The notes below the pieces were generated by a model that saw only the letters and a list, made by a program, of their open reading frames with translations, made no database searches and was not told the DNA's origin. A program made the position numbers and the translations under genes. Below, piece after piece: positions 1-36,182 of a DNA stretch of 45,004 nt. The stretch's first letter is position 1. Every line of letters starts with the position of its first letter. The stretch spans positions 1-45,004 of the forward strand of contig CAZZYJ010000002.1 in NCBI GenBank assembly GCA_964658215.1, in the 5' to 3' direction. The DNA is from an uncultured Steroidobacteraceae bacterium. GTDB lineage: Bacteria > Pseudomonadota > Gammaproteobacteria > Steroidobacterales > Steroidobacteraceae.

Positions 1-347
1 GGACGTATTTCCAGCTCGTCGTTGCAAGCGTTTACGCCGTGGCCGACGTCATGGTCTGGAAGTCCACCGCGATCTTGGTGCAGATGACGTCCAATCCCAC
101 GGCCGGCTTGATCCCCCGCCTGGGCCAGACGTGCGGCGACAAAATATCCGACGCCGTCAGGTCCGGATGCCGGGGATCATTGGGTGCTATCGCCATGCGC
201 CTTCAAGAGTCCCAAGTTTACGATTGCAGTTGCAGATCAACAGTTTGCCATCCGCTTCAGGATCAAAACCGAATGTGATACACAGTTCGTCAAGCTCAAA
301 TTGTGCACCTGCGACCTGATTCTCGCACATGCTCTAAGGAATACAAG

Positions 348-1133
348 CTAAGCGATTGTATTGCTAGGGCTTCGGGGTAACCCGGCATCGAGCGCTTCAT
401 TCGCCTGTCGGTGCAGCGCGTGCAGTCGTGACTCCATGGACGCCTGTAGCTCCAAGAGCCCCGCCGGCGTCAGTCCTTTCGGTACGTACACCGGTTCTCC
501 GACCGCGATCACCACCCTCGCGCCCGGCTTCGGAATCACGAAATGGTCCCACTGAATCCGCCATGCACGCGAGGCGGCATAGGCCATCGGCACCATGGGC
601 CGCCGTGACAGTTGCGCCAGCAGCACCGCCCCGGGCTTGAATTTCCAGAGCGGTCCGCGCGGACCGTCCGGGGTGATGGCGGGCGAAACCCCGTCGTGCA
701 CCAACGCCTGATAGTAATCGCGCAGCGCCCGGGCGCCGGTGTGCGTGGAAGAGCCGCGGATCACGTGGCCACCGACGCGGCTCACCAGCAGGGCGGCGAT
801 CTCGCCATCGACGGACGGGCTGATCAAGAAGCCGAGCTTGACGGTGGCGGCCTGCCGCGCCAGCAGGAGCTTCACGCAGAACAGCGTGTGCTGGTGCCAG
901 TAGACCGGGATGAACGACGGCGCGTCGCCGAGCGCCGCCGTGATGTGCTGCGCCCCCAACACCTGCGTCACCCGCGACCAGCCCCAGACTCTGCGCACCA
1001 GCCACAATCCCAGGGGAACCAGCAGCCGGTACAGACGCAGACGGCTGGGGGTGAGCCGCCGGCCCGAGCGGGTCTGCTGATCGTAGAGGGTGTTGCGCAG
1101 ACCGCCATCGTCGGGCTTGTTGTTCACGCCCAC
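348..1133 (-). CDS. DUF374-type lysophospholipid acyltransferase (LPLAT superfamily) protein
   Basis: 261-aa ORF with a GTG start at 1133. N-terminal hydrophobic segment (LYRLLVPLGLWLVRRVW), then a core typical of DUF374 (ISPSVDGEIAA..., GGHVIRGSS..GARAL, ITPDGPRGP). Divergent from the P450 gene, 63 bp away. Family call from memory of DUF374 sequences. Confidence 0.7.
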   Translation of the reverse strand: MGVNNKPDDGGLRNTLYDQQTRSGRRLTPSRLRLYRLLVPLGLWLVRRVWGWSRVTQVLGAQHITAALGDAPSFIPVYWHQHTLFCVKLLLARQAATVKLGFLISPSVDGEIAALLVSRVGGHVIRGSSTHTGARALRDYYQALVHDGVSPAITPDGPRGPLWKFKPGAVLLAQLSRRPMVPMAYAASRAWRIQWDHFVIPKPGARVVIAVGEPVYVPKGLTPAGLLELQASMESRLHALHRQANEALDAGLPRSPSNTIA

Positions 1134-1196
1134 ATTCTCGATAACGCCGCCGCGCTCCGCAATAGCCCGCCGGGCCGGCTACGTTACAATGGGCGG

Positions 1197-2495
1197 ATGC
1201 ATACTCAGGCCCCTCCCCCTGGCCCCGCCGACGGCTTCGATCTCGGCGGCACCGACGAATCCTTGCTGCGACTCGGCGACTATTTCTCCCGCTTTGGCGA
1301 TACCTACCGGGTTTTCGCCCCCGCACGCGGCGTTTACAACTACGTGATCCACCACCCCGACGACATCAAGCGGGTGCTGTTGTCGAATCACCGCAACTAC
1401 ACCAAGGGCGAGGGCATGGATCGAGTCAAGATCCTGCTCGGCAACGGCATCATGACCAGCGAGGGCGATTTCTGGCGCCGGCAGCGGCGCATGATGCAGC
1501 CGTCCTTCCATCGGCGCGTCATCGAACGATTCGGTGCGCTGATCCAGGAGGTGAACGAGCGGTTCGCCGCGCGCTGGGAACGGCATGCCGCCCGCGGCGA
1601 GCCCATCAATCTCACAGACGACGTCAGTGAACTCACGCTCGACATCGTCCTGCGGTCTATTTTCGGCACCGACCTTGCTCACCTGGAGCGCAAGATGGGC
1701 GCCAACCCATTCCAGGTGGTGGCCAAGGAGCAGAACCGCGACCTCAAGTTCGCCTTCAGATTCCGCTCGCTGAGCAAGCTCGTGGCCGAACTCATCGAAG
1801 CACGGCGCCGCGAACCGGACGGCGAACACGTTGATTTTCTCAGCATGTTCATGGCCACCCGGGACCGCGACACCGACGCGGCGATGAGCGACAAGGAGAT
1901 GATCGACGAGGTGCTCACGCTCATCGTCGCCGGACACGAGACCACCGCCGCCGCACTGACCTGGACGTGGTACCTGGTCAGCCAGCACCCGGACACGGCG
2001 CGGGCCCTCGAGGCCGAAGCGGACCGGGTGTCGCCCGGCATGCTGGGACTGGATGCCGCCGAGTCCCTGACGTTCACGCACCAGGTCGTGCAGGAAGCGT
2101 TGCGGCTGTATCCGCCGGGGTGGCTCATCACCCGTCGTACCATCGACGCCGACGAATTGGGCGGCTTCGCCATCGGCCCGCGCACGGACGTCTTCATCAG
2201 TCCGTACCTGCTGCATCGGCATCCCCGGTTCTGGAGCGATCCCGAAGCCTTCCGGCCGGAACGCTTCGCCGGCGCCGACGCCGCCGAGCGCCATCGGTTC
2301 TCCTATATTCCCTTCGCGGTCGGCCCCCGGCATTGCATCGGCGAAACCCTGGCCATGTTCGAGATGCTGGCGCATGTGCATGCCATGGCGAAGCGTTTCC
2401 GATTGACGCGCGCCGACGACGCACCCATAGAACTCGAGGCGCAGATCAATCTGCGGCCCCGGTCCCCCCTCATGATGACGGTACATACACGATGA
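1197..2495 (+). CDS. cytochrome P450 (CYP4/CYP110-like, fatty-acid-hydroxylase-like clade)
   Basis: 432 aa from the ATG at 1197; the longer track ORF from 612 is antisense shadow over the DUF374 gene. I-helix AGHETTA, K-helix EALRLYPP, FRPERF, and heme-binding FAVGPRHCIGETLA. The stop TGA (2493-2495) overlaps the next gene's ATG. Confidence 0.92.
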   Translation: MHTQAPPPGPADGFDLGGTDESLLRLGDYFSRFGDTYRVFAPARGVYNYVIHHPDDIKRVLLSNHRNYTKGEGMDRVKILLGNGIMTSEGDFWRRQRRMMQPSFHRRVIERFGALIQEVNERFAARWERHAARGEPINLTDDVSELTLDIVLRSIFGTDLAHLERKMGANPFQVVAKEQNRDLKFAFRFRSLSKLVAELIEARRREPDGEHVDFLSMFMATRDRDTDAAMSDKEMIDEVLTLIVAGHETTAAALTWTWYLVSQHPDTARALEAEADRVSPGMLGLDAAESLTFTHQVVQEALRLYPPGWLITRRTIDADELGGFAIGPRTDVFISPYLLHRHPRFWSDPEAFRPERFAGADAAERHRFSYIPFAVGPRHCIGETLAMFEMLAHVHAMAKRFRLTRADDAPIELEAQINLRPRSPLMMTVHTR

Positions 2496-4456
2496 AGCAC
2501 ACGACCTTGCTGGAGGTTCTCGAGGCCAACCGCAGCGTCGACCGCGTGATCACCCACGTGGACGGCGAGAGCGCCGAACGACGCGTGAGCTACGCCGACC
2601 TGCACGCCCGCGCGGTGGGCATCCTGCATCACCTGCAGTCGCTCGGCGCCCAGCGCGGCGACAAGATGATCCTTTTCTTGAACAACAACGAGCAGTTCCT
2701 GGACGGGTTCTGGGCGGCGGTGTGCGGCGGTATCGTGCCGGTGCCCCTGGCCGTGGGCATCAGCGACGAACATCGACACAAACTGCTCAGGGTGGCGCGC
2801 AAGCTGGGTTCGTGTTTTCTATACACCGACGCGAAAACGCTGGAGCGGCTGAGCGCGCTGGCCGTCGAGGTGGGTGAGACGCAGACGTTCGACGAACTCA
2901 AAACACGCACCTTCCTGGTCGAGTCCCTCACCGACATCTCGCGACCGGGCAGGCTCTACCGGCCGCGTCCCGACGACCTGGCCTTCATTCAGTTTTCCTC
3001 CGGATCGACCAGCGAGCCGAAGGGAGTGCTGCTCACCCATGGTAACCTCATGGCCAACATCTATGGCGCCACCGCCATCGACCATTACGGCCCGCAGGAC
3101 GTCTCCTTGAGCTGGATGCCGCTGACCCACGACATGGGGCTGATCGGTTTCTTTCTCATGCAGTTCACCAACCAAGTCCACATCCATTTGATGCCGACCG
3201 ACCTGTTCGTCCGACGTCCGCTGCTGTGGCTGCAGGTGGCCGCCCGCAAGCGGGTCACCATCACCTGCTCGCCCAACTTCGGCTATCGCCACTTCCTCAA
3301 GGTGCTGGGCGGCCGCAGGCTCGACGATGTCGATCTGTCCAGCATCCGCTCCTTGTACAACGGTGCCGAGCCCATCTCGGTGGAGCTGTGCAACGAATTC
3401 ATGGGCGCCCTGGCCTACACGGGCCTCAAACGCCAGGCCATGTTCCCGGTATATGGATTGGCCGAGGCCAGCCTGGCCGTCGCCTTTCCCACACCCGGCG
3501 TCGACTATCGCTGGGTCCGGGTGAACCGCCATCGGTTGAAGGTGGGGGAACGCATCGAGGTCAATCCCGCCACGACGCAGGACGCGCTGGAACTGATGTG
3601 CGTCGGTGCGCCGGTGCCCAGCATCGACTTGACTATCGTCGGCGCCGATCGACAGGCGCTGCCGGCGGATCACGTCGGCCACATCCTGATCGGCGGCGCC
3701 AGCGTGACGAGGGGCTACTTCGGCGACGCCGAGGCCACCGCCGCCGCGATCGACGCCGCGGGCCGGCTCGACACGGGCGATCTGGGGTTTCTGCACGAGG
3801 GTGCTCTGTACATCGCGGGACGTAGCAAGGAGATCATCTTCATCAACGGCATGAATTACTATCCCTACGACCTCGAGAACATCGCCCGGCGTGCGCCGGG
3901 CCTCGACCTCAACAAGGTGGTGGTCGCCGGCATCGGCACCCCCGCCGCGCAGGCGGAGGAACTGGTGGTGTTCGTCCTGCACCGGGGCAGCGTGAGCGAC
4001 TTCCTGCCTACCGCCACCGCGGTCGGACGGCTCATCAACGAGCACACGGGGCTGGAAGTGGCGCAGGTGGTGCCGGTCAAACGCATTCCGAAAACCACCA
4101 GCGGCAAGCCGCAGCGGCACCTCCTCGAGGAGTCGTATGCGAGCGGTGAGTTCGTGGCGGATCTTGCGGAACTGGCCCGTCTGCGGGCGGCGCAACCCCA
4201 GGGCGCCCAGAGCGCAGAGTCCGAGGTGGAAGCCCGACTGCAGTCCCTGTGCGAGAACGCGATGCCGGGCAAACGCGTCGACGTGAACGACAATCTGTTC
4301 GAAATCGGTGCAAGCTCACTCAAGCTCATCGAGATCCACGAGCACATCGACCGCGATTTCCCGGGGCTCGTGGATCTGACCGAGTTGTTCGATCACCCGA
4401 CCATCGCCGCGCTTGCGAAGCACATCCGGGCGAAACAGGCCGAAACGCCGGCTTGA
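2492..4456 (+). CDS. fatty acyl-AMP ligase fused to a C-terminal acyl/peptidyl carrier domain (FAAL-ACP)
   Basis: 654 aa from the ATG at 2492, with an ATGA overlap onto the P450 stop. Adenylation motifs FSSGSTSEPKGVLLTHGNL, YGLAE, TGDLGFLHEGALYIAGRSKEIIFINGMNYYPYDLE and IPKTTSGKPQR. C-terminal about 80 aa is a carrier domain with the phosphopantetheine-site motif FEIGASSLKLIE. Confidence 0.92.
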   Translation: MKHTTLLEVLEANRSVDRVITHVDGESAERRVSYADLHARAVGILHHLQSLGAQRGDKMILFLNNNEQFLDGFWAAVCGGIVPVPLAVGISDEHRHKLLRVARKLGSCFLYTDAKTLERLSALAVEVGETQTFDELKTRTFLVESLTDISRPGRLYRPRPDDLAFIQFSSGSTSEPKGVLLTHGNLMANIYGATAIDHYGPQDVSLSWMPLTHDMGLIGFFLMQFTNQVHIHLMPTDLFVRRPLLWLQVAARKRVTITCSPNFGYRHFLKVLGGRRLDDVDLSSIRSLYNGAEPISVELCNEFMGALAYTGLKRQAMFPVYGLAEASLAVAFPTPGVDYRWVRVNRHRLKVGERIEVNPATTQDALELMCVGAPVPSIDLTIVGADRQALPADHVGHILIGGASVTRGYFGDAEATAAAIDAAGRLDTGDLGFLHEGALYIAGRSKEIIFINGMNYYPYDLENIARRAPGLDLNKVVVAGIGTPAAQAEELVVFVLHRGSVSDFLPTATAVGRLINEHTGLEVAQVVPVKRIPKTTSGKPQRHLLEESYASGEFVADLAELARLRAAQPQGAQSAESEVEARLQSLCENAMPGKRVDVNDNLFEIGASSLKLIEIHEHIDRDFPGLVDLTELFDHPTIAALAKHIRAKQAETPA

Positions 4457-4481
4457 GTGAAGCGGCGCGCGCCGAGCGTCC

Positions 4482-5372
4482 CTAGAGGGCGTCGCCGGCG
4501 GTGAACGTGTCGCAGCGGTCGATGGAACCGGAATCGAAGCCGCGGCGAAACCATTTGACGCGTTGCGCCGAGGTGCCATGGGTGAAGCTGTCGGGCACCA
4601 CCGTGCCCTGTTCGCGCTTCTGCAGCGTATCGTCGCCCACCGAGGATGCCGCCTGCAGGCCCTGTTCCAGATCGCCCGCCTCGAGAATGTGGTGGGCCTT
4701 GTTGGCCTGCTCTGCCCATACACCGGCGAAGCAATCGGCCTGTAGCTCGACCTCCACCGACACGCCGTGCGCTCCGGTCTCGCCCTGCCGGCTGCCGAGC
4801 GATTCGGCCTTGTCGGTGATCCCCAACAGGGTCTGCACGTGATGGCCGATCTCGTGGGCGATGACGTAGGCGCGCGCGAACTCGCCGGGAGCACCGAACT
4901 GCGTCGACAACTGCTGGAAGAACGCCAGATCGAGATACACCTTGCGATCGTTCGGACAGTAGAACGGCCCGGCCGCCGTGCTGGCCTGGCCGCAGGCGGA
5001 TGCCACCCGGCCGGAAAAGAGGTGCAGCTTGGGAGGCTGGTAGGTCTTGCCCAGCGTCTGGAAGTAAGCCCCCCACTCGTCTTCGGTCTCGCCCACGATC
5101 TGGCGCACGAATTTCACCTGCGGATCGTTGGTGGAGCTTGCGACCGGGCCCGCCTGCTGCGCCGGCGCAGTCTGCTGCGTCGCCGTGCCGGACTGCTCGT
5201 CCCCGCCACCGCCTTCCAAGATGCCGAGCAGCGTGGCCGGATTGACGCCCATGAAGTAGCCGATGACGACGATGACCACCGTACCGACGCCGATGCCGGC
5301 GCCACGTCCCCCGAAACCCGCACCGCGTCCGTCCTCGACGTTGTTGCTCTCACGGCTGTCGTCCAATTTCAT
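4482..5372 (-). CDS. YpfJ-family neutral zinc metallopeptidase
   Basis: 296 aa starting MKLDDSRESNNVEDGRG (compare E. coli YpfJ MRWQGRRESDNVEDRR). One TM segment and the HEIGHH zinc motif. SD GGAGGGGAA lies upstream of the ATG at 5372. The alternative ATG at 5408 would overlap the upstream gene. Confidence 0.85.
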   Translation of the reverse strand: MKLDDSRESNNVEDGRGAGFGGRGAGIGVGTVVIVVIGYFMGVNPATLLGILEGGGGDEQSGTATQQTAPAQQAGPVASSTNDPQVKFVRQIVGETEDEWGAYFQTLGKTYQPPKLHLFSGRVASACGQASTAAGPFYCPNDRKVYLDLAFFQQLSTQFGAPGEFARAYVIAHEIGHHVQTLLGITDKAESLGSRQGETGAHGVSVEVELQADCFAGVWAEQANKAHHILEAGDLEQGLQAASSVGDDTLQKREQGTVVPDSFTHGTSAQRVKWFRRGFDSGSIDRCDTFTAGDAL

Positions 5373-5394
5373 GGTTCCCCTCCCCTCGCTGTTT

Positions 5395-6246
5395 TCAATT
5401 AGTGCCATACAACGGCTTTTTCAGCCGCCATCGACGATACGACCACAGCCAGTCCGCCGGACTCGCCAGGACATGCCGCTCGCAGGCACGCGCGTAGCGT
5501 TCGGTGATGCCATTCGTCTGCAACGTCTCCCGGCCGTCCCAAAGCGGCTCGAAGGCGACCGCGTAGCGACCGCGGCGGACACGGCGCATCGCCACATATA
5601 ACACGGGCAGACGGGTGGCCCGGGCGATCTGCTCGGCGCCCACGTAAAAGGCCGTATCGCGCCCCAAAAAGGTGGTCCAGTAGCGCGTCTCCGTCGACAC
5701 CGGCGCCTGATCCGCGTTCATCGCCACCGCGCGCACCACGGCGCGCCGACGCAGGAAGTCCGTCAACAACTCCTTGGCGGGGATCAGCCGCGCACCGAAG
5801 CGTGAGCGGATGCCCAACATCAGCCGTTCGGCCCAGGGGTCGTGCAGAGGTTTGTAGGCGGCGTCCAGCGGGTACCCGAGCTGCAACGCGATGCCGTGCA
5901 GCAGCCACTCCCAATTGTAGAGGTGCGAGGTCACGAGCAGCACCGACTGGCCGCTCATGAGAAACTGACGCGCCACGGCGAGGTTGTCGATGGGCACGCG
6001 CGCCGAGAGGTCGTTCCCGCTCATCGACGCCGACTTCAGAACCTCCACCAGCACGTCGCAAAAATTCTTGAGATAGCGTTTGTGGATGGCGACGCGCTCC
6101 GCCTCGCTCTCGCCCGGAAACACCAGCGCGATCTGCTCGCGGATGACGCGGTGGCGATGACGGACGACGTAGTACGCCAACAAGTACAAAAAACCGGAGA
6201 AGGCATACAGCGCCCACAGCGGCAGGCGGGAGATTATTTTGATCAT
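5395..6246 (-). CDS. LpxL/HtrB-family (lipid A biosynthesis lauroyl/myristoyl-type) acyltransferase
   Basis: 283 aa with an N-terminal TM anchor (LPLWALYAFSGFLYLLAYYVV). Catalytic H(x)4E-like motif TSHLYNWEW and family-typical YVGAEQIARATRLPVLYV. Sits 22 nt upstream of the ypfJ-like start on the same strand. Confidence 0.85.
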   Translation of the reverse strand: MIKIISRLPLWALYAFSGFLYLLAYYVVRHRHRVIREQIALVFPGESEAERVAIHKRYLKNFCDVLVEVLKSASMSGNDLSARVPIDNLAVARQFLMSGQSVLLVTSHLYNWEWLLHGIALQLGYPLDAAYKPLHDPWAERLMLGIRSRFGARLIPAKELLTDFLRRRAVVRAVAMNADQAPVSTETRYWTTFLGRDTAFYVGAEQIARATRLPVLYVAMRRVRRGRYAVAFEPLWDGRETLQTNGITERYARACERHVLASPADWLWSYRRWRLKKPLYGTN

Positions 6247-6488
6247 TGGGAAAGAGCAATGAAAGCCGCATCGTGCGCGGATTCTACAAATGGTGGCGAC
6301 GCCTCCAATGCTTGGGTAGGCGTGGGCAGCACGCTGGTCGGTACCGACACCAACGCCTCCACCCGGGTCAGAGGCTGCAGCCGCTGCTGGCGGCCGACGG
6401 TTTCGAGGTGGTTTTCATGCTGCATATTCCCATAAAACCCGTGTTATTGCAGTGTAATGACCGGCAGACCACCCTCCCGCAAAGGGGA

Positions 6489-7871
6489 CTAAACAGTCTC
6501 CGTCGTTTGGGCTCGGCGGCGCCGCTGCAGGAGGTAGTGCAGTGGGATTCCCAGCAGGATGATGGCGGTGCCGAGCAGCGAGTTGCGCGGCTGGTCAGCA
6601 AACGAGAAGACCAGCAGCACGGCTGCCGCGATGATGAAAAGCGCGGGAACGACGGGATAGCCCCACACGCTGTAGGGGCGGTTTGCTTTCTCAGCGGCAC
6701 TCTCGCGTCCGCGGAAAACGAAGACCGAGGCGGTGACCGCAGCGTAGAAGAGCCATTCGGAAAAGATGGCGAGCGAGAAGAGGCCCTGGAACGTGTTGAT
6801 GAGCAGCAGCAGCATGGAGGAGACCGTGGCCTGCAGGATCAGGGCGCGGGAGGGGGTCTTGAAGCGGGGATGGACGTAGGCCAAAGTGCGGAAAAACAGG
6901 CCGTCTCGTGCTGCAGCGAAGGGGATGCGCGCCCCGGTGAGCGACGAGCCGATGAACGTGGCGCCGTAGGAGATGGCGAGGCCGATCGAGAAGACCCATG
7001 CGACCGCGGGGCCTGCGCTTTGGAGGATGGCGACGACGGCGGGCCGGTCGGCGTTGGCGATGACGGTGGCGGGCAGCACGAACTGAATCGCGGCATTGGT
7101 CATCATGTAGAGGACGCCGACGATACAGACTCCACCGATGAGCGCCAGGGGCAGGCTGCGCTGGGGATTCTGAATCTCGCCGGCGGCGTGGGTGACATCG
7201 GACCAGCCGTCGTAGGCCCACAGGGCAGCGATCAGGGCGACCATGAAGCCGGGGAAGCCGCCACGTGCTCCGGGATGATGGGTGGAAAAGTTTGCGCTCG
7301 TGCCGTGGCCGCCGAGGATGCAGATCCCGACGACGGCGAGGACCATCGCGACCTTGAGACCCATGAGCACGCGCTGGATGTTGCTCGCCTTGCGGGTGCC
7401 GAGGATATTGATTCCGGTGATGACCCAGACGAAGGCGATGGCCACGAGCTGACCGTAGACAACGTGCGGAAGGAAGGTGCCCGACAGGAAGGAGAAGGCA
7501 GGGAAGTTGCCCAGGACGCGGACCACGCCCGAGGCGATCGAAGCGATGGACGAGGGCTTGGCGATGGTGACCTGGGTCCACATGAAGACGAAGGCGGCGA
7601 GGTCTCCATAGGCCTCACGCAGGAAGGCGTATTCGCCGCCGTATCTGGGACGGGAGGCAGCGATCTCCGCGTAGGTCATGGCGCCGAAGAGGGAGAGCAG
7701 GCCGCCGACGATCCACACCGCGTAGACGGTGACCGAAGAACCCACGGCGGCCATCATCTCGCGGGGCACCAGGAAGATGCCGCTGCCGATGATGATGCCG
7801 ACGACGAAGGAGGTCGCGTGCGAGGCGCTCAGGACGCGCGGTAGTTCATGCTCTTGGGATAGGTCGGCCAT
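6489..7871 (-). CDS. APC-superfamily amino acid permease
   Basis: 460 aa with about 12 predicted TM helices. N-terminal GSGIFLVP signature and overall APC-family similarity. Confidence 0.9.
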   Translation of the reverse strand: MADLSQEHELPRVLSASHATSFVVGIIIGSGIFLVPREMMAAVGSSVTVYAVWIVGGLLSLFGAMTYAEIAASRPRYGGEYAFLREAYGDLAAFVFMWTQVTIAKPSSIASIASGVVRVLGNFPAFSFLSGTFLPHVVYGQLVAIAFVWVITGINILGTRKASNIQRVLMGLKVAMVLAVVGICILGGHGTSANFSTHHPGARGGFPGFMVALIAALWAYDGWSDVTHAAGEIQNPQRSLPLALIGGVCIVGVLYMMTNAAIQFVLPATVIANADRPAVVAILQSAGPAVAWVFSIGLAISYGATFIGSSLTGARIPFAAARDGLFFRTLAYVHPRFKTPSRALILQATVSSMLLLLINTFQGLFSLAIFSEWLFYAAVTASVFVFRGRESAAEKANRPYSVWGYPVVPALFIIAAAVLLVFSFADQPRNSLLGTAIILLGIPLHYLLQRRRRAQTTETV

Positions 7872-24701: not shown

Positions 24702-26675
24702 GTGGAACAGGAACTGCGCCGCGTGCAGGCGCTGCTGAAGGCCGGCCGTCACACGGACAGCCGGGAGGCGGCCGCGGCGCTGGCCGCGCGGGTTCCCGAG
24801 AACCGCGACGTGCTGTATGCGCTGGCCATGAGCCAGCGCTGCTCGCACGACATCCCGGCCGCACTCGCGACGCTTGGACGCCTGCAAACGCATCATCCAA
24901 AATACAGCCGCCTGTTCCAGGAACGTGGCCACTGTCACGTCGCGACCCGCGATGCACCACGCGCCATCGAGGCCTTCCTCGAGGCCGTGAACATCAACCC
25001 GGCGCTGCCGGCGAGTTGGAGCATGCTCGAGGGGCTGTACCGGTTGATCGGCGAGGCCGACAACGCGGCGATGGCCGCCGCGCACGTCGCGACGCTCAAG
25101 CGCCTGCCTCCGGAAATCGTCAGCGCCACCAGCCTGTTCGCGGATGGCGACTGGCTGCCCGCCGAGCACCTGGTGCGGGCGTATCTTTTGGAACACGGCG
25201 ACCACGTCGAGGGCATGCGGCTGCTGGCGAGGATCGGGATCGCGCGCGACGTGCTCGACGACGCCGAGTTGCTGCTCGAGGGCGTCCTGCATCTGGCACC
25301 CGATTACCAGGCGGCGCGCTTCGACTACGCCCGCGTGTTGGTGGAGCGGCACAAATATCACCGCGCCCGCGCCGAGCTGTCCCGCCTGGTCGCCGCGCAG
25401 CCCGACGACCGGCAGTACCTGACGCTGCTGGCCCGCGCCCTCGCAGGCATCGGCGAACACGACGCCGCGCTGGTGCTGTACCGCCGCCTGCTGCTTGCCG
25501 CGCCGCAGGAGGCGGATCTGCACCTGTCGATCGCGCATTCCCTGAAGACCTTGGGCCGGCTTACCGAGGCCATCGACGCCTATCGCGCCGCCGCCGCGGC
25601 GAGGCCCGGCTTCGGTGACGCCTATTGGAGCCTCGCGAACCTCAAGACCTATCGATTTCTGGACGACGAGCTCGCGCGCATGGACGCCGCGGAATCCGCC
25701 GCGCAGACGCCTCTCATCGACCGCTACCACCTATGCTTCGCCTTGGGCAAGGCCCTCGAGGACCGCGCCGACTATCCACGGTCGTGGCGTTACTACGAGC
25801 GCGGCAACGCACTGAAACGCGCCGAGAGCCGCTACCGGCCGGAACTCCTCGAACTCAATACGCGCCGGCAAATCGAGGTCTGCACGCCGGAGTTCTTCGC
25901 GCGGCGCGCAGGCGTGGGCGATCCCGCGGTGGACCCGATCTTCATCGTCGGCCTGCCCCGCTCCGGATCCACCCTGCTAGAACAGATTCTCGCCTCCCAT
26001 TCCCGGGTGGAGGGCACGCAGGAACTGGCCGAGATTCCGCGGCTCGCACTCGAACTGCAGGGACGCGACCCCGAGCTCGGCAATCCGCGCTATCCGGGCG
26101 TGCTCGCCGACCTGGACGCGGAGACGTTCCGGCGTCTCGGCGCGAGATATCTGACGGACACGCGCAGCTACCGGACGGACCGGCCGTATTTCATCGACAA
26201 GATGCCGAATAATTTCCGCCACATCGGACTCATCCACCTGATGCTGCCGAACGCAACGATCATCGACGCCCGCCGCGAGCCGATGGCGTGCTGCTTCGGC
26301 AATCTGAAACAGCTGTTCGCCAGCGGCCAGGAGTTCACCTACGGCATCGAGGACATCGCGCGCTACTACCGGACCTATCTCGAGCTGATGCAACACTGGG
26401 ACGCGGCCCTGCCCGGACGTGTTCTGCGCGTCCATCACGAGGACGTGGTGGATGATCTCGAAGGCAGCGTGCGCCGGCTGCTCGCCTTCTGCGGCCTGGA
26501 TTTCGAGCCCGCCTGCGTCGACTTCCACAAGACCGAGCGCAGCGTCCGCACGGCGAGTTCCGAACAGGTCCGACGGCCCATCTTTCGCGACGGCCTCGAG
26601 CAATGGAAGCATTACGCACCCTGGCTCGGCGAGCTCGAGCGCGCGCTCGGCGACGCCCGGCAACGCCACCGCTGA
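24702..26675 (+). CDS. TPR-repeat-containing sulfotransferase family protein
   Basis: 657 aa with a GTG start 29 nt after the receptor stop. The N-terminal about 380 aa are TPR-like repeats. The C-terminal sulfotransferase domain carries the PAPS 5'-phosphosulfate loop GLPRSGSTLLEQIL and a downstream 3'-phosphate-binding region (RxxD...). Confidence 0.85.
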   Translation: MEQELRRVQALLKAGRHTDSREAAAALAARVPENRDVLYALAMSQRCSHDIPAALATLGRLQTHHPKYSRLFQERGHCHVATRDAPRAIEAFLEAVNINPALPASWSMLEGLYRLIGEADNAAMAAAHVATLKRLPPEIVSATSLFADGDWLPAEHLVRAYLLEHGDHVEGMRLLARIGIARDVLDDAELLLEGVLHLAPDYQAARFDYARVLVERHKYHRARAELSRLVAAQPDDRQYLTLLARALAGIGEHDAALVLYRRLLLAAPQEADLHLSIAHSLKTLGRLTEAIDAYRAAAAARPGFGDAYWSLANLKTYRFLDDELARMDAAESAAQTPLIDRYHLCFALGKALEDRADYPRSWRYYERGNALKRAESRYRPELLELNTRRQIEVCTPEFFARRAGVGDPAVDPIFIVGLPRSGSTLLEQILASHSRVEGTQELAEIPRLALELQGRDPELGNPRYPGVLADLDAETFRRLGARYLTDTRSYRTDRPYFIDKMPNNFRHIGLIHLMLPNATIIDARREPMACCFGNLKQLFASGQEFTYGIEDIARYYRTYLELMQHWDAALPGRVLRVHHEDVVDDLEGSVRRLLAFCGLDFEPACVDFHKTERSVRTASSEQVRRPIFRDGLEQWKHYAPWLGELERALGDARQRHR

Positions 26676-26728
26676 CGCACCCGTCGGTCGCACGGGTCAG
26701 TCGCGCCGCGCGAGGACCCTGGGGGGGG

Positions 26729-27511
26729 TCAGCCCACCCACTCGAGCGCGCCGACGAGTTCGGCCACCGAGTCGATGACGAGATCGGCGCCCGCATCCTC
26801 GAGGGCCCGTGCGGCGATGCCCCGGCGGCGGCCGCGCTCCGCCGCCGGTAATGCCTGCAGCGCTTCCCAAGACAGGCCGAGGGCGTTGCCCGACGTGACG
26901 CCGACGGTGAACGCGCCGGCGGCCTTGCCCTCGCGAATGCCGGCCTCGGCATCGTCCACCTTGACCACCCGCGACAGGGGCCACACGCCGAGTTCCACGC
27001 AGGCCTTGTAGATCATCAACGGCGACGGGCGCCCGACCCGCGTCTCGCCCGCACAGATCACCTGCGCGGGCTGATAGCCCTGCGCGGCCGCGAGCGCGAG
27101 CACCGGCTCCATCATGTCCCGCGTGTAGCCCGTGGAGGAGGCCACCTGGATCCCCGCCCGGCGCAGTTGGTCGAACGTCTCGCGGGCGCCTGGAATGAGC
27201 GTGGCTGCGCTTGCCGCATGGTGGCGCATCAACGGCCCGAGCCGCGCGACGAGCCGCGCCGCGGCGTCGGCACCGGGGTCGCAGCCGAAGCGGGCCCGCC
27301 ACGCCGCCACCACCGCCGGCTCACGCAGCAGACCGTCGATGTGATCGCTCTTCGCCCTGCCCATGTCGTGTCGCACCGTGACCGCATCGACCACGACGCC
27401 TTCGGCGCCGAATGCTTCACGCAAGGCCTCGACCGGCGCCATGCAGCCGAAATCCACCATGGTCCCCGCCCAGTCGAAGATCACCAGGTCGAAATGGTGT
27501 TTGAGCTTCAC
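26729..27511 (-). CDS. phnX: phosphonoacetaldehyde hydrolase (phosphonatase)
   Basis: 260 aa with a GTG start at 27511 overlapping the upstream stop (GTGA). HAD motif I VIFDWAGTMVDFGCMAP, a Schiff-base Lys context (MGRAKSDH, compare B. cereus MGLLKIDH), STGYTRDMM and GRPSPLM. Confidence 0.85.
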   Translation of the reverse strand: MKLKHHFDLVIFDWAGTMVDFGCMAPVEALREAFGAEGVVVDAVTVRHDMGRAKSDHIDGLLREPAVVAAWRARFGCDPGADAAARLVARLGPLMRHHAASAATLIPGARETFDQLRRAGIQVASSTGYTRDMMEPVLALAAAQGYQPAQVICAGETRVGRPSPLMIYKACVELGVWPLSRVVKVDDAEAGIREGKAAGAFTVGVTSGNALGLSWEALQALPAAERGRRRGIAARALEDAGADLVIDSVAELVGALEWVG

Positions 27512-28680
27512 GCCACCGCCCCGCGTGCCGGCAGCTCGGTGCACCGGTCGGCGAACAAATCCGCGACCACCTCCTCGCCGATCGCGAAACACGAGGACGC
27601 CCCCGCACCACACGTCACGAGGGCGAGCCGAACGTGCGGCTCGGGCGCGTCGATCAACATTGGCCTGTCGGCGGCGGCATACGTGCCGGTCCACCGCTCG
27701 AGCGTGGGCGGCGGCTCGATGCCGAGTGCGGCGCGAAATTCGTCGAGGATGAGCAGATCGATTTCCTGGTGCCCGAAGGGATCCGGCGTCGGCGCGTAGT
27801 GATGGCTGTCACCCACCACCAGACTGCCGTCCGCGCTCTGCACGACGATGAGGTGGACACCGTGCCGGAGGTGCGCAGCCTGCTCGCACGCGAGCCGGAT
27901 TTTGAGCGGCCCCGCCGCCGCGAGGTCGGCATAGCCCGCGTAGCGCGCGAGTCCGAGATCCGACATGCACGCGGCGGGAAGGCGGAATCCAGGACTCGCC
28001 AGCCGCAGCATCTGCAGCTTGCAGCGGGTCAGCGCATGAACCGCCAGGCGTTCGCGATACAGGCTCTGAAAGTCGTCGCCGGGGCAGACGACCACCCGGT
28101 CCGCCTTCACGCTGCCGCGCGAGGTGACCACCCGGGGCAGGTCGATGCCGCATACGACGGTTTCGCGCAGAAAAGTCACGCCCTGCGCACTCGCCAGCCA
28201 TGCCGCGAGTCGTGGCACCGCCTCCCGCGATTCCACGCGCAGTTCCGCCGTGCTTTCGAGCACCGCCAGGAGATCCGGCGCCTTCAGTTGTGGGCAGCGG
28301 AGCCGTGCCTCGGCCGCACTCAACAGACGGCAGCCGGCGGCCATCTCGGTGGCCAGAAACGCCTCCGCGACGCGTACCGACTCCGGACGCCGCGCCGTGA
28401 CCCATGCCCCCGTCTGCAGGATGGGTATGTCGGCGGCCGCGGCCACTTCGCGCCACACCTCGCGGGTGCGACACGCGCGTGCCCACATCGACGTGCGCTC
28501 CTGTCCGCTCACCGTGACGAAGCCGAAGTTGCGCACCGACGCACCGTTCGCCTGGGCATCGCGGTCGATCACGACCACGCGCAGCCCCAAGCGAGCGGCG
28601 GCGAGCGCCACGGCCAGTCCGACGATCCCGGCGCCGACCACCGCAAGCTCGAACTGCACCGCGTGAAAGCCTCGTGCCAT
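27508..28680 (-). CDS. FAD-dependent oxidoreductase (DAO family; aminophosphonate-oxidase-like, phosphonatase-associated clade)
   Basis: 390 aa with an N-terminal Rossmann dinucleotide motif VVGAGIVGLAVAL...VVVIDRD. Translationally coupled to phnX. The clade assignment is from memory of phnX-linked DadA-like oxidoreductases. Confidence 0.8.
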   Translation of the reverse strand: MARGFHAVQFELAVVGAGIVGLAVALAAARLGLRVVVIDRDAQANGASVRNFGFVTVSGQERTSMWARACRTREVWREVAAAADIPILQTGAWVTARRPESVRVAEAFLATEMAAGCRLLSAAEARLRCPQLKAPDLLAVLESTAELRVESREAVPRLAAWLASAQGVTFLRETVVCGIDLPRVVTSRGSVKADRVVVCPGDDFQSLYRERLAVHALTRCKLQMLRLASPGFRLPAACMSDLGLARYAGYADLAAAGPLKIRLACEQAAHLRHGVHLIVVQSADGSLVVGDSHHYAPTPDPFGHQEIDLLILDEFRAALGIEPPPTLERWTGTYAAADRPMLIDAPEPHVRLALVTCGAGASSCFAIGEEVVADLFADRCTELPARGAVA

Positions 28681-28737
28681 GGGCTACGCCATCCGCCGGG
28701 GTCTCGTCATATCGCCTCGTGAAGCATGTTTCCTGGC

Positions 28738-28767
28738 AGTATACGGACGCGAATGTGACGGTTTCCA
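28738..28767 (-). promoter_or_regulatory. candidate sigma70 promoter for the FAD-oxidoreductase/phnX operon
   Basis: On the minus strand: TGGAAA (28762-28767), an 18-nt spacer, then TATACT (28738-28743). About 55 nt upstream of the ATG at 28680. Confidence 0.3.
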
Positions 28768-28777
28768 CCGCCGGAAA

Positions 28778-28795
28778 GTGTCATCACCCTGTAAC
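28778..28795 (+). promoter_or_regulatory. Pho box (PhoB-binding-site-like) upstream of the DUF5690 gene
   Basis: GTGTCAT-CACC-CTGTAAC matches 13/14 half-site positions of CTGTCAT-N4-CTGT(C/A)A(C/T). Same orientation as the downstream gene, 43 nt before its ATG. Confidence 0.45.
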
Positions 28796-28837
28796 GGGCG
28801 GGCGGCTTCATGTCGGTCGAAGTTTCTCCAAGGTCGT

Positions 28838-30118
28838 ATGCCAACGCTCGCTGTTTCGCTCCGCAGATCGCCCTCGGCGTTCACCGCCTTTGCGTCGCTG
28901 GCGGGATTCGCCACGTATTTTTCGATGTATGCGTTCCGCAAGCCGTTCGCGGCGGCCACCTTCGGCGACGTCGAGGGCTGGCACCACGCCCTCGATTTCA
29001 AGATCGCGCTGGTGATCGCCCAGGTGCTGGGATATGCCGCGGCGAAATTCATCGGCATCAAGGTCATCGCGCAGATCCGCTGCGCTTTGCGGGCGCGCGC
29101 CATCCTGGGTCTGATCGGCGCCGCCTGGTTCGCGCTGGTGGCGTTCGCCCTCGTGCCGGCGACGTTCAAGGTGGCGGCGCTGTTCCTCAACGGGCTGAGC
29201 CTGGGAATGATCTGGGGGCTGGTGTTCGGCTACATGGAAGGCAGACGGACCTCGGAAATCCTGGGCGCGGTGCTGTGTGCGAGTTTCATCGTCTCCTCGG
29301 GCGCGGTCAAATCGGTCGCCAGCCTGCTCATGCGTGATTTTCACGTCACGGCGCTGTGGATGCCGGCTGTCACGGGACTGCTGTTCGTGCCCGTGCTGCT
29401 GCCGGCCGTCTGGGGTCTGTCCTCGCTGCCCGCCCCCGACGCCGAGGACGAGGCACAGCGGGTGCGCAGGGCGCCGATGAGCATGCGCGACGTGCGGGCC
29501 TTTCTCACGGACTACGGCTTCGGCGTGGCCCTGCTGGTCACGGCGTACGTGTTCGCCACGGCACTGCGCGATTTTCGCGACAACTTCGCCGTCGAGCTGT
29601 GGACGGCGCTGGGCTATGCCGATCCGGCGGCCATGTTCACCTATTCGGAACTCGCGGTGGCGGCGGTCGCGCTGGGAGCCCTCGGCATCATCGTCCGGGT
29701 GCGCGACAACCTGCGGGCGCTCGCCGTCATCCACGGCGTGATACTGGCGGGGCTCGTGCTGCTCGGGGCGTCCACGCTCGCGTTCGATGCCGGCTGGCTC
29801 GGACCGCTCCCTTGGATGATCGCGAGCGGCGCCGGACTCTACGTGGTGTACACACCGTTCAACGCGATGCTGTTCGATCGGCTGGTGGCGGCCAGCGGCC
29901 GGGTGGCCACCGCCGGGTTCCTGATCTACGTTGCCGACTCGGCCGGTTACACGGGCAGCTGTGCCCTGCTGCTGTGGCGCAACTTCGGGCTGGTGCGCAG
30001 CGACTGGCTGACGGTGTACCGCTACGCCACCTATGTCACCTCGGCGGCCGGTCTCGTGCTGGTGTCGTTGTCGCTGGTGTATTTCGCGGGACGCACCCGG
30101 CCGGATCCTACGGCTTGA
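28838..30118 (+). CDS. DUF5690-family polytopic membrane protein (MFS-like; putative phosphonate-related transporter)
   Basis: 426 aa from the ATG at 28838 (MPTLAVSLRRSPSAFTAF...), with about 12 hydrophobic segments. Divergent from the oxidoreductase-phnX pair. Family name from memory. Confidence 0.7.
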   Translation: MPTLAVSLRRSPSAFTAFASLAGFATYFSMYAFRKPFAAATFGDVEGWHHALDFKIALVIAQVLGYAAAKFIGIKVIAQIRCALRARAILGLIGAAWFALVAFALVPATFKVAALFLNGLSLGMIWGLVFGYMEGRRTSEILGAVLCASFIVSSGAVKSVASLLMRDFHVTALWMPAVTGLLFVPVLLPAVWGLSSLPAPDAEDEAQRVRRAPMSMRDVRAFLTDYGFGVALLVTAYVFATALRDFRDNFAVELWTALGYADPAAMFTYSELAVAAVALGALGIIVRVRDNLRALAVIHGVILAGLVLLGASTLAFDAGWLGPLPWMIASGAGLYVVYTPFNAMLFDRLVAASGRVATAGFLIYVADSAGYTGSCALLLWRNFGLVRSDWLTVYRYATYVTSAAGLVLVSLSLVYFAGRTRPDPTA

Positions 30119-30473: not shown

Positions 30474-30485
30474 GGTGCTCGGGTG

Positions 30486-36178: not shown

Positions 36179-36182
36179 AATT

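Follow-up and report, generated by a model that had tools for sequence, protein, structure and literature searches.

A conserved P450/FAAL-ACP cassette linked to LpxJ- and LpxL-type acyltransferases: a possible dedicated acyl donor for lipid A

A FAAL that carries its own carrier domain would leave an acyl group bound to that carrier, and this acyl group needs a consumer. Here, we address the question of what that consumer could be at a locus of a soil gammaproteobacterium, where a FAAL-ACP gene is coupled to a P450 gene and is flanked by acyltransferase genes instead of PKS/NRPS genes. The analysed stretch of DNA, 45,004 nucleotides in length, is referred to as the window.

Results

Layout of the locus

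The initial annotation had placed four genes in this region, encoding a DUF374 acyltransferase, a P450, a FAAL-ACP didomain protein and an LpxL/HtrB-family acyltransferase. Pfam searches identified all four at their coordinates, and the features of the locus are as follows:

50-196, minus strand: 5′ end (~49 codons) of a PAS-GGDEF-EAL gene, truncated by the contig/window end (tblastn)
348-1133, minus strand: DUF374 acyltransferase gene (Pfam)
1134-1196, no strand: DUF374/P450 divergent intergenic region, 63 bp (flanking gene coordinates)
1197-2495, plus strand: P450 gene (Pfam)
1929-1946, plus strand: P450 I-helix motif AGHETT (located in sequence)
2094-2108, plus strand: P450 motif EALRL (located in sequence)
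2313-2354, plus strand: P450 heme loop FAVGPRHCIG (located in sequence)
2492-4456, plus strand: FAAL-ACP gene, start overlapping the P450 stop (Pfam)
2528-3721, plus strand: FAAL-ACP adenylation domain
about 3491-3607, plus strand: FAAL-type insertion (alignment with FAAL structure sequences)
4262-4426, plus strand: FAAL-ACP carrier domain
4316-4318, plus strand: phosphopantetheine serine S609 (motif located in sequence)
4482-5408, minus strand: YpfJ zinc-peptidase gene (Pfam and NCBIfam)
5395-6246, minus strand: LpxL-family (Lip_A_acyltrans) acyltransferase gene (Pfam)
5908-5925, minus strand: LpxL-like catalytic motif H108-LYNW-E113 (HX4E)

The 63-bp region shared by the divergent DUF374 and P450 genes is real, and a search of this region for a sigma-70 consensus gave no match. 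The claimed ATGA overlap was likewise borne out when the sequence was read directly: the junction reads ...ACA CGA TGA, with the FAAL-ACP start codon at 2492-2494 and the P450 stop codon at 2493-2495. The convergent LpxL/HtrB-family gene is present as proposed, but the initial annotation had overlooked the YpfJ gene, and the LpxL-like gene is therefore not the immediate neighbour of FAAL-ACP. The YpfJ gene encodes a neutral zinc metallopeptidase (HEIGHH) of the YpfJ/KPN_02809 family (PF04228, E 1e-108; NF050010, 357 bits versus a cut-off of 250), has its probable true start at 5372, and apparently shares a transcript with the LpxL-like gene. Only the window, L003, L006, L011 and a few metagenome contigs have it at this position, and it is a lineage-specific insertion.

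At the other side, the start of the window is a contig end, and over its first ~33 nt the window disagrees with a second, independent assembly of this locus, in which the PAS-GGDEF-EAL gene is intact (894 aa). The start of this gene was recognised from 50 orthologues matching the window from 196 to 50. In most relatives it follows the DUF374 gene, making it a conserved neighbour with only putative membership of the cassette.

When essentially every sizeable ORF of the 45-kb window was annotated with Pfam, no ketosynthase (KS), condensation, thioesterase or thioester-reductase domain and no ferredoxin or ferredoxin-reductase gene was found. This upheld the previously claimed absence of both a domain that could consume the acyl group and a redox partner for the P450.

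The encoded proteins retain their catalytic motifs

The FAAL-ACP protein (654 aa) matched AMP-binding (E 1e-53) and PP-binding (E 2e-10). Its top NCBIfam match was the FAAL subfamily PRK09192, under the cut-off of that model. The insertion region is colinear with the sequences of the E. coli and Legionella FAAL crystal structures, whereas alignments with non-FAAL ANL enzymes begin only after it. The core motifs are invariant among homologues. The protein has its own carrier domain, as the initial annotation had stated, with the motif G606-A-S-S609-L, in which S609 is invariant (21 homologues).

The P450 (432 aa; PF00067, E 2.6e-72) had been labelled CYP4/CYP110-like. This could not be confirmed. 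Among solved proteins, the CYP97 carotenoid hydroxylases (CYP97A3/C1) came closest, followed by CYP3A, CYP170A1, CYP4B1 and CYP102.

The DUF374 protein (261 aa; PF04028, E 4e-19) belongs to the published LpxJ family of lipid A late (3′-secondary) acyltransferases (PMC6148475). Its residues W79-H80, D109, D156 and W195-D196 recur in 50 or more of the 56 orthologues from cassettes, and their order and spacing are those of the essential W60/H61, D86, D132 and W172/D173 of Rickettsia LpxJ (PMC6148475). Judged by its sequence, this protein is the first candidate transferase of the cassette.

The second candidate is the LpxL-like protein (283 aa; PF03279, Lip_A_acyltrans, E 1e-32), a member of the LpxL/HtrB superfamily with a hydrophobic N-terminal anchor. 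An alignment with A. baumannii LpxM (5KN7) spans the whole protein and places its HLYNWE motif opposite PHFGTWE, the Glu of which is Ala in entry 5KNK. All orthologues keep H108, and 46 of 49 have E113. The protein nevertheless scored under all NCBIfam equivalog cut-offs (LpxL/P, 72.6 versus 297.8; LpxM, 45.9 versus 336), and its second-best match was the generic 'lysophospholipid acyltransferase family protein' model. The DUF374 and LpxL-like families are unrelated, and lipid A is the only known substrate that we found them to share in the literature.

The acyltransferases travel with the P450/FAAL-ACP pair

The cassette recurs across about 80 species, and its arrangement is therefore far beyond chance. 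We compared 60 related loci with complete flanks of 3 kb on each side (FAAL identity 43-100%) from Steroidobacteraceae, Thiotrichales, Endozoicomonas and Bacteroidota. A DUF374 and/or LpxL-like gene was nearby in 56 of these; 26 had both together with the P450, some had one acyltransferase only and four had none. All three partners were present in each of the 12 loci with a FAAL identity of at least 65%. Conversely, in a scan starting from the LpxL-like protein, FAAL-ACP was adjacent in all loci that could be determined at an identity of at least 61% (10 of 10), while LpxL-like genes of 44-51% identity can stand without a nearby FAAL (e.g. L116). Co-travelling of the acyltransferases, proposed earlier as a check, was thus conserved in both directions. 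Furthermore, the divergence of the partners was correlated with that of FAAL (r = 0.93-0.95). The outer flanks vary among loci, and the acyltransferases differ in order, in number and in the side on which they lie. The linkage has therefore outlasted many rearrangements, and it extends across several orders and to Bacteroidota.

In 58 of 77 loci, the gene directly upstream of FAAL-ACP encodes the P450. The overlap is kept in 34 of the 59 loci with the pair, with gaps of at most 56 bp in all 59. About a quarter of the loci lack the P450, and in two of them a radical-SAM/SPASM enzyme replaces it. In ~27 loci, a gene for an Sfp-type phosphopantetheinyl transferase (PPTase) lies inside the cassette, at the position of the 63-bp DUF374/P450 gap of the window, and in L023 PPTase and DUF374 are fused in one ORF. 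Neighbouring genes include arnA/B/C-like genes (L066), PMT_2 (ArnT-like) and GT2 genes (L056/L059) and, in four loci, a GT9 heptosyltransferase gene. All carriers of the cassette are LPS-producing diderms, except for a single 2-kb contig, which was probably binned wrongly.

Discussion

The explanation that we prefer, and to which we give roughly an even chance, is that the cassette provides a dedicated carrier-bound (hydroxy)acyl donor for late acylation, with lipid A or, just conceivably, a closely related envelope glycolipid as the acceptor. The FAAL domain would adenylate a free long-chain fatty acid and load it as a thioester onto the phosphopantetheine at S609, without involving either CoA or the housekeeping AcpP. 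In many relatives the cassette-encoded PPTase would prime this carrier; in the lineage of the window, priming would have to come from an unlinked PPTase. The translationally coupled P450, drawing on an unlinked ferredoxin system, would hydroxylate the acyl chain, most likely when carrier-bound or, alternatively, as the free acid beforehand. The membrane-anchored LpxL-like and LpxJ-like O-acyltransferases would then take the acyl-S-carrier as donor and esterify hydroxyls of lipid A acyl chains, giving secondary chains at 2′ and 3′, although one of them may instead acylate the new hydroxyl made by the P450.

The initial annotation had proposed a self-contained acyl-activation module feeding two acyltransferases. 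Its linkage (56/60) and its separation from PKS/NRPS genes (0/85) stand, whereas lipid A as the acceptor is something that we infer, and the fatty-acid substrate, the timing and position of hydroxylation and the direction of transfer are likewise presumed. The reading as an acyl donor is strengthened by the identity of DUF374 with LpxJ, by the cassette PPTases and by the arn-like and heptosyltransferase neighbours. Counting against our explanation are the sub-threshold scores of the LpxL-like protein in a family that includes enzymes with other acceptors, the modular composition with loss of the P450 in about a quarter of the loci, the loci with one or no acyltransferase, the LpxL-like genes of 44-51% identity without FAAL, and a PPTase/P450/FAAL-ACP trio whose neighbour, in Panacagrimonas and on an IncP plasmid of Diaphorobacter, is a sphingolipid-like cluster (FAAL/ACP/alpha-oxoamine synthase), in both cases without LpxL or DUF374 genes.

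The same donor logic could serve another acceptor, such as a lysophospholipid (Aas-like re-acylation), an aminolipid, a sphingolipid-type lipid or a polysaccharide lipid anchor, which we consider rather unlikely. The trio in sphingolipid-like clusters indicates that the donor module is able to act in other lipid pathways as well, and a FAAL-ACP-aminotransferase fusion exists among the relatives (P0189). The equivalog scores and the generic lysophospholipid model also fit, and LpxL-family enzymes are diverse, with AlmG transferring glycine. VexE is described as acting on the Vi-antigen anchor (PMC9597891), and PatA, named in PMC11631085 and PMC6148475, acts on PIM. However, the DUF374 enzymes characterised so far all acylate lipid A, two unrelated lipid A-type families occur together in the cassette, PlsC-type domains (PF01553), typical of phospholipid re-acylation, are absent, and the arn-like, ArnT-like and heptosyltransferase neighbours suggest LPS.

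It is improbable that donor and acceptor are not coupled at all, with the DUF374 and LpxL-like proteins being ordinary late acyltransferases on acyl-AcpP and the P450/FAAL-ACP product being separate, for example a hydroxy-fatty-acyl building block that an unlinked pathway would use. Such independence would suit the variable composition, the four loci where FAAL-ACP has no acyltransferase nearby, the FAAL-free LpxL-like genes at lower identity and the trio in its different lipid context (L079 and L086). Moreover, much of the conservation falls within Steroidobacteraceae, where vertical synteny alone could suffice, and the PAS-GGDEF-EAL gene is as conserved beside DUF374. Nevertheless, the linkage survives rearrangement in Thiotrichales, Endozoicomonas and Bacteroidota as well, with acyltransferases differing in number and position in these distant taxa. 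A carrier-bound acyl group requires a transferase, no other is encoded nearby, and the PPTase-DUF374 fusion also speaks against independence.

That FAAL-ACP is a free-standing loading module, from which a PKS/NRPS elsewhere in the genome would receive a (hydroxylated) fatty-acyl starter in trans, appears very improbable. Beyond the cassette clade, its closest relatives are indeed the N-terminal FAAL-ACP loading didomains of NRPS/PKS megasynthases, with the McyG loading didomain as the best solved match, and source annotations of relatives read 'non-ribosomal peptide synthetase' or 'polyketide synthase'. However, a tblastn search with 40 megasynthases detected no NRPS/PKS domains within about 8 kb in the flanks of 85 loci, the 45-kb window likewise has no condensation or ketosynthase domain, in line with the original claim, and the conserved neighbours are acyltransferases.

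The earlier speculation that FAAL activates a hopanoid carboxylic acid, which the transferases would ester-link to a lipid A acyl chain bearing a hydroxyl, gained no support and is most improbable: the hpn genes are present as noted (hpnI/J/K-like, at 33.9-37.4 kb, about 28 kb from the cassette, given previously as ~27 kb), an HpnI-like GT21 gene adjoins FAAL-ACP in the atypical locus L019 and the P450 could supply the hydroxyl, but hpn genes occur in the flanks of 0 of the other 84 loci, neither the P450 nor either acyltransferase is present in L019, FAAL groups with fatty-acid-activating enzymes, and the cassette is present in Bacteroidota, Endozoicomonas and Thiotrichales, which are not known to produce hopanoids.

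As a donor for lipid A, the cassette would resemble AcpXL/LpxXL and AlmEFG in its logic, while using different parts. It would represent a route from a free fatty acid, via its own carrier, to an outer-membrane lipid that has not been described before.

Gene layout of the cassette

Genes were assigned from six-frame ORFs by searches against Pfam and NCBIfam, which gave the following layout.

348-1133, minus strand: DUF374 protein, 261 aa
1197-2495, plus strand: cytochrome P450, 432 aa
2492-4456, plus strand: FAAL-ACP, a didomain protein with AMP-binding and PP-binding domains, 654 aa
4482-5408, minus strand: YpfJ/KPN_02809-family zinc metallopeptidase
5395-6246, minus strand: LpxL-like protein of the Lip_A_acyltrans (LpxL/HtrB) superfamily, 283 aa
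6489-7871, minus strand: amino-acid permease

The ATG of the gene for FAAL-ACP (2492-2494), a fatty acyl-AMP ligase with a fused carrier domain, is overlapped by the P450 stop codon TGA (2493-2495), and a gap of 63 bp separates the divergent DUF374 and P450 genes. The gene places, the overlap and the gap were as described in the initial annotation, which had, however, skipped the YpfJ gene between FAAL-ACP and the LpxL-like gene. The longest ORF of this YpfJ gene overlaps the LpxL-like stop by 14 nt, its likely start being at 5372, and a YpfJ gene is placed there only in the closest relatives of the window (the related loci L003, L006 and L011, and some metagenome contigs).

The left edge of the window (region 1-196) is the end of a contig. 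The first ∼33 nt of the window diverge from an independent assembly of this locus, the two being identical from about nt 34 on, and the independent assembly runs on into an intact gene for an 894-aa PAS-GGDEF-EAL protein. Such a gene adjoins DUF374 in about 48 related loci and may be a regulatory partner or merely conserved synteny.

Among the remaining sizeable ORFs of the 45-kb window, Pfam searches detected no ketosynthase, condensation, thioesterase or thioester-reductase domain and no ferredoxin or ferredoxin-reductase gene; other genes in the window include ispH, ileS, ribF, obg, ispB and porin genes. In a promoter and terminator scan of positions 200-6600, sites were no more numerous than in shuffled sequence. 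An Rfam scan of the window returned two tRNAs only, both outside the cassette, and no mobile-element boundaries were found in a repeat search of positions 1-7000. The region 24702-40927 is rich in envelope-lipid genes, which in other genomes are unrelated to the cassette: it carries a TPR-sulfotransferase fusion, HAD, DAO and DUF5690 genes, genes for a DAG kinase, an Omp85-family protein and an LPG_synthase_TM protein, hpnK/J/I-like genes, a gene for an ArnT-like PMT_2 protein and a two-component system.

The FAAL-ACP and P450 proteins

The AMP-binding domain of FAAL-ACP was recognized by Pfam with an E value of 1e-53. The ANL core motifs SSGSTSEPKG, YGLAEA, TGDLG, GRSKE and PKTTSGKPQR are all present and invariant among homologues, and S609 in the carrier motif GASSL is invariant in 21 homologues. 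Residues ∼334-372 are colinear with the FAALs of E. coli (3PBK) and Legionella (3KXW) and with FadD32, whereas 4CL, LC-FACS, DltA, luciferase, TycA and McyG align to FAAL-ACP only downstream of this stretch. Judging by this alignment, residues ∼334-372 are the FAAL-specific insertion signature, which sets FAALs apart from acyl-CoA ligases. The best NCBIfam model was PRK09192 ‘fatty acyl-AMP ligase’, with 362 bits against a cut-off of 600. The top 120 database relatives, at least 74% identical, are all didomain proteins; most come from JGI/ENA metagenome assemblies, and the few that are named belong to Steroidobacteraceae or Gammaproteobacteria. In the source databases the P450/FAAL-ACP pair is called ‘non-ribosomal peptide synthetase’ or ‘polyketide synthase’. 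A FAAL-ACP/acyltransferase fusion was also sought among the longer relatives, none of which was fused to an acyltransferase; these proteins carry additional condensation or ketosynthase fragments, or a fused aminotransferase.

The P450 matched PF00067 with 244 bits and contains a heme-cysteine loop (FAVGPRHCIG), the ExxR motif as EALRL and the I-helix motif AGHETT, which is that of an O2-activating monooxygenase. All its NCBIfam matches were far under the cut-offs. Among solved relatives, the carotenoid hydroxylases CYP97A3/C1 are nearest, with CYP3A, CYP170A1, CYP4B1, CYP46A1 and CYP102 next, which places the P450 in a clan for long lipophilic substrates. The label ‘CYP4/CYP110-like’ that had been attached to the protein could not be established.

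Variation was seen at the P450 position. In L007 (1854-4170, plus strand) a tandem P450 pair lies upstream of FAAL-ACP, the two proteins being 65% and 82% identical to the window P450. In L040 (6630-7892, plus strand) and L063 (5028-6326, plus strand), which have no acyltransferase nearby, a radical-SAM/SPASM enzyme takes the place of the P450 directly upstream of FAAL-ACP. This swap fits a P450 position that is held by an enzyme functionalizing an unactivated acyl carbon.

The two acyltransferases

The DUF374 protein matched PF04028 with 68 bits against a cut-off of 26.8. This family has been renamed LpxJ, the lipid A 3′-secondary acyltransferase of Helicobacter, Campylobacter, Wolinella and Rickettsia, and the essential residues of the Rickettsia enzyme are W60, H61, D86, D132, W172 and D173 (PMC6148475). 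When the residues were mapped by motif order, W79/H80, D109, D156 and W195/D196 of the DUF374 protein matched those of Rickettsia LpxJ in order and spacing, and they are kept in at least 50 of 56 cassette orthologues. A sequence search of the PDB gave no match for this protein, and a single-sequence AlphaFold2 model was unusable (mean pLDDT 38.7).

The LpxL-like protein matched PF03279 with 113.7 bits and aligns end to end with LpxM of A. baumannii, its H108-LYNW-E113 lying opposite PHFGTWE, the Glu of which reads Ala in entry 5KNK. The HX4(D/E) dyad, H108-x4-E113, is conserved in orthologues, with H108 invariant in 49. The protein scored far under every equivalog cut-off for LpxL, LpxM and LpxP, among them those of TIGR02207 (LpxL/P; 72.6 vs 297.8) and TIGR02208 (MsbB; 45.9 vs 336), and the best NCBIfam model, PRK08419, reached 87 against a cut-off of 248. 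On these profile scores, the LpxL-like protein is a distinct subfamily of the superfamily, outside the known orthologous groups.

Conservation of the gene neighborhood

In three long contigs with 75-77% identical FAAL-ACP proteins, the order DUF374(-)/P450(+)/FAAL-ACP(+)/LpxL-like(-) was found throughout; the upstream flank is common to two of them, and the flanks past the LpxL-like gene differ in all. A scan of one genome per species, queried with an alignment of stand-alone FAAL-ACP proteins, yielded 80 loci at 43-77% identity from Steroidobacteraceae, Thiotrichales, Thiohalomonadales, Panacagrimonas, Endozoicomonas and two Bacteroidota. Relatives from soil metagenomes were mostly from Steroidobacteraceae. 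Neighborhoods were counted by tblastn and ORF clustering.

Table. Genes neighboring FAAL-ACP in related loci; the denominators are loci with enough flank.
P450 directly upstream of FAAL-ACP: 58/77 loci
DUF374 gene at most 3 kb upstream of FAAL-ACP: 52/69 loci
LpxL-like gene convergent, at most 300 bp away: 28/75 loci
LpxL-like gene at most 8 kb away: 36/55 loci
At least one of the two acyltransferases: 56/60 loci with 3 kb on both sides
Both acyltransferases and P450: 26/60 loci with 3 kb on both sides
Both acyltransferases and P450: 12/12 loci at ≥65% FAAL identity

The junction between the P450 and FAAL genes is a 4- or 1-nt overlap in 34 of 59 loci, and the gap is at most 56 bp in all of them. 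As FAAL identity falls, so do the identities of the partner proteins (r = 0.93-0.95). The transferase genes vary in number and in side, the LpxL-like gene being present twice in L056 and L084 and the DUF374 gene twice downstream in Endozoicomonas, which indicates that the association has outlived many rearrangements. The cultured Endozoicomonas sp. G2_2 (L083) has its two DUF374 genes alongside genes for a PPTase (phosphopantetheinyl transferase), a P450 and FAAL-ACP. Complete or near-complete sequences with the cassette include OZ252002.1 and CAWAHK010000004.1.

A reciprocal metagenome scan was started from the LpxL-like protein, with flanks of 5 kb. At ≥61% identity, FAAL-ACP was adjacent in 10 of 10 determinable contigs. 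The group at 44-51% identity mostly showed the order Fur/MFP/RND-LpxL with FAAL-ACP just beyond the 5-kb flank, and since this insert pushes FAAL-ACP more than 5 kb off, the scan is uninformative below ∼50% LpxL-like identity. Matches at 42% identity or less were other subfamilies, with FAAL-ACP adjacent only in L120. In L116 an LpxL-like gene stands without a FAAL.

Other genes recur around the cassette. In one subclade (L024, L026-L028, L032, L035, L037, L053 and L057) three inserted genes, for a Fur-family regulator, an RND membrane-fusion protein and an RND pump, separate FAAL-ACP from a co-directional LpxL-like gene downstream of it, and 23 loci have a Fur-family gene close to the cassette. 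Directly downstream of the DUF374/FAAL-ACP pair, L044 (10000-12389, plus strand) and similarly L058 carry a flavin-dependent halogenase-like gene and a gene for an FkbO/Hyg5-type chorismatase; both loci lack the P450, and no ketosynthase was detected nearby.

A cassette-encoded PPTase and LPS-related neighbors

About 27 loci carry a gene of ∼200-240 codons for an Sfp-type phosphopantetheinyl transferase (PPTase), either between DUF374 and P450 or directly upstream of FAAL-ACP. Examples, all on the minus strand, are L066 (5850-6716), L081 (6977-7642) and L024 (6084-6806), with some 24 other loci. An alignment of 25 sequences shows the GxDxE and W..EA..K motifs to be invariant, and 16 of the 25 match Pfam ACPS by themselves. 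In L023 (5349-6794, minus strand) the PPTase is fused in frame to DUF374, the sole fusion found. The PPTase gene is absent from the cassette in the window's clade. We argue that a private PPTase in the cassette points to a functional fused carrier and to a self-sufficient cassette.

LPS-modification genes adjoin the cassette in several loci: arnA-, arnC- and arnB-like genes in L066 (540-4832, minus strand), a locus from Thiotrichaceae; genes for PMT_2 (ArnT-like) and GT2 proteins in L056 (1840-4502, minus strand) and L059 (3000-6493, minus strand); and a GT9 heptosyltransferase gene in four loci, namely L024 (4221-5867, minus strand) and three others.

A sphingolipid-like arrangement of the core genes

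A different wiring was found in L079 (Panacagrimonas perspica DSM 26377) and L086, the latter on the conjugative IncP plasmid pDCB2 of Diaphorobacter sp. JS3051 (NZ_CP065408.1, 41926-57881). Here PPTase(-), P450 and FAAL-ACP are followed, in this order, by a further FAAL, a small ACP and an alpha-oxoamine-synthase-type aminotransferase of class I/II, and LpxL and DUF374 genes are absent from the arrangement. The pDCB2 flanks carry genes for a CDP-alcohol phosphatidyltransferase, a cytidylyltransferase, an LptF/G-family protein and an ELM1-type glycosyltransferase. Both loci resemble the specialized sets of ACP, acyl-ACP synthetase and serine palmitoyltransferase that PMC9386255, in its account of bacterial sphingolipid synthesis, describes. 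In contrast to such sets, the window and most of its relatives have no alpha-oxoamine synthase, and their neighbors are O-acyltransferases of the LpxJ and LpxL types. The presence of the trio in a sphingolipid-like cluster indicates that PPTase, P450 and FAAL-ACP form the conserved core, while the consumers differ by lineage. We infer that this core would supply an oxygenated acyl-S-carrier and that the LpxJ- and LpxL-type O-acyltransferases would be its consumers in the window's lineage.

No assembly-line partner and no recurrent hopanoid genes

The flanks of 85 loci were searched by tblastn with 40 NRPS/PKS megasynthases as queries, condensation motifs being present in 40 of 40 and ketosynthase motifs in seven. 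No ketosynthase or condensation domain was found in these flanks or in the window; the queries matched FAAL-ACP itself, a further AMP-binding gene in each of five loci and a short unannotated stretch in L076. The proposal of the initial annotation that the P450/FAAL-ACP pair has no PKS/NRPS partner nearby thus held across the 85 loci, none of which embeds the pair in a PKS/NRPS cluster.

The hpnI/J/K, PMT_2 and DUF5690 proteins of the window were compared by tblastn with the same 85 loci. The recurrent IspH matches in this search reflect ordinary ispH-ileS-ribF synteny, and a single HpnI-like match was obtained, in the atypical locus L019. There, a gene for a GT21 glycosyltransferase that is 64% identical to the window's HpnI-like protein (6400-7554, minus strand) lies divergently beside a FAAL-ACP of 70% identity; this locus has lost the P450 and both acyltransferases and is the only adjacency to a hopanoid gene seen. 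The suggestion in the initial annotation that the FAAL might activate a hopanoid carboxylic acid for attachment to lipid A therefore gained no comparative support.

Proposed mechanism and acceptor

We propose that the FAAL would charge its own carrier domain with a free fatty acid and that the coupled P450 would hydroxylate the acyl chain, probably on the carrier, in analogy to P450s that act on carrier-tethered substrates. The two membrane-anchored transferases would then attach the acyl group to hydroxyls on the acyl chains of lipid A. We consider the chances that lipid A is the acceptor to be about even. It is favored because the two transferase families are unrelated in evolution and have lipid A as the only known substrate in common, because LPS-related genes are among the neighbors, and because the cassette is essentially limited to LPS-producing diderms. 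Another envelope lipid as the acceptor would be in line with LpxL-family enzymes that act on other acceptors, such as PatA, which is named in PMC11631085, and VexE, as indicated in PMC9597891, but appears rather unlikely to us. The remaining probability is shared jointly by an adjacency of uncoupled genes, a PKS/NRPS partner acting in trans and the hopanoid idea.

Taking the LpxJ/LpxL-linked and sphingolipid-like arrangements together, we tentatively suggest, as a possibility that we would not yet favor, that PPTase, P450 and FAAL-ACP constitute a portable ‘oxygenated acyl-carrier donor’ module for different membrane-lipid assembly lines. Steroidobacteraceae, many other Gammaproteobacteria and Bacteroidota might then wire this module to LpxJ/LpxL-type transferases and might possess an undescribed lipid A chemotype with a salvaged, P450-hydroxylated secondary acyl chain. 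The new hydroxyl might in turn be acylated, which would create a tertiary acyloxyacyl branch. If this tentative suggestion is true, lipid A acylation in these bacteria would draw on free or environmental fatty acids via a private carrier and not via AcpP.

Relation to known systems

In the AcpXL/LpxXL system of Rhizobium and Bradyrhizobium, the acyl chain is built de novo on the free-standing AcpXL by dedicated FabF/FabZ-type enzymes, and its omega-1 hydroxyl is not known to come from a P450. As in that system, an AcpP-independent carrier of the cassette would hand a special hydroxylated chain to an LpxL-family late acyltransferase. However, in the cassette the carrier and a FAAL form one protein, in which the FAAL would load a ready-made free fatty acid, and the cassette has a coupled P450 and a second, LpxJ-type transferase. 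A free-standing ACP together with FAS or FabF/FabZ-type genes, the trait of AcpXL systems, was not found, there being no FAS-type genes near the cassette in the window.

Glycylation of Vibrio cholerae lipid A by AlmEFG, reportedly described by Hankins in 2012 and Henderson in 2017, has a similar logic, in which an adenylating enzyme charges a dedicated carrier, from which an LpxL-family transferase passes the cargo to a hydroxyl on an acyl chain of lipid A. AlmG is grouped with the LpxL family (PMC11631085). The AlmEFG system differs in its glycine cargo, in its DltA-like AlmE (not a FAAL) and its separate carrier protein, and in having no known P450, LpxJ-type enzyme or PPTase. A DltA-like adenylating enzyme with a separate small carrier was not found in the cassette, and the LpxL-family transferase is the only component in common. 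The cassette is closest in logic to AcpXL/LpxXL and AlmEFG and a member of neither, since its carrier is fused to a FAAL, FAS genes are absent and its presumed cargo is other than an amino acid.

Known LpxL and LpxJ enzymes take acyl-AcpP from fatty-acid synthesis, and their genes have, to our knowledge, no linkage to genes for a FAAL, P450 or PPTase. The same two families are paired in the late acylation of Helicobacter, Campylobacter and Rickettsia (PMC6148475), and the cassette proteins retain the LpxJ catalytic residues and the LpxL-family HX4(D/E) motif. In contrast to those systems, the LpxL-like protein of the cassette is no equivalog of LpxL, LpxM or LpxP.

The carrier charged by Aas and AasS is the housekeeping AcpP; neither enzyme is of the FAAL type, and Aas is fused to a PlsC-type domain. 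They are acyl-ACP synthetases of E. coli and Vibrio, respectively, that salvage free fatty acids, as stated in PMC12086093. The cassette shares with them the ATP-dependent loading of a free fatty acid on a carrier for use by an acyltransferase in membrane lipid, but has a private, fused carrier and LpxL/LpxJ-type transferases. The FAAL-ACP loading didomains of PKS/NRPS systems, such as McyG, HapA and olefin synthase (PMC11837247), have the same architecture and are the closest sequence relatives, but no ketosynthase or condensation domain follows in any of the 85 loci. The passages retrieved from a 2025 FAAL review and a 2026 FAAL-diversity paper treat PKS/NRPS contexts only and mention FAAL-LPLAT fusions in passing, and a full-text literature search found no account that connects a FAAL/P450 cassette with LpxL, LpxJ, DUF374 or lipid A. 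The cassette is widespread and uncharacterized.

Late acylation of lipid A is thought to draw its chains from the housekeeping acyl carrier protein, and the only exceptions that we know of are AcpXL/LpxXL in rhizobia and the glycine-transferring AlmEFG in Vibrio. If the proposed function is true, the cassette would represent a third dedicated-donor route, which starts from free fatty acids and includes its own oxygenase. It would assign a role to FAALs beyond polyketide and lipopeptide synthesis and a function to a gene pair that is now labeled as a non-ribosomal peptide or polyketide synthase. Furthermore, it would add to the known ways in which bacteria tailor their outer membrane, and new lipid A structures would be expected both in Steroidobacteraceae and in marine symbionts such as Endozoicomonas.
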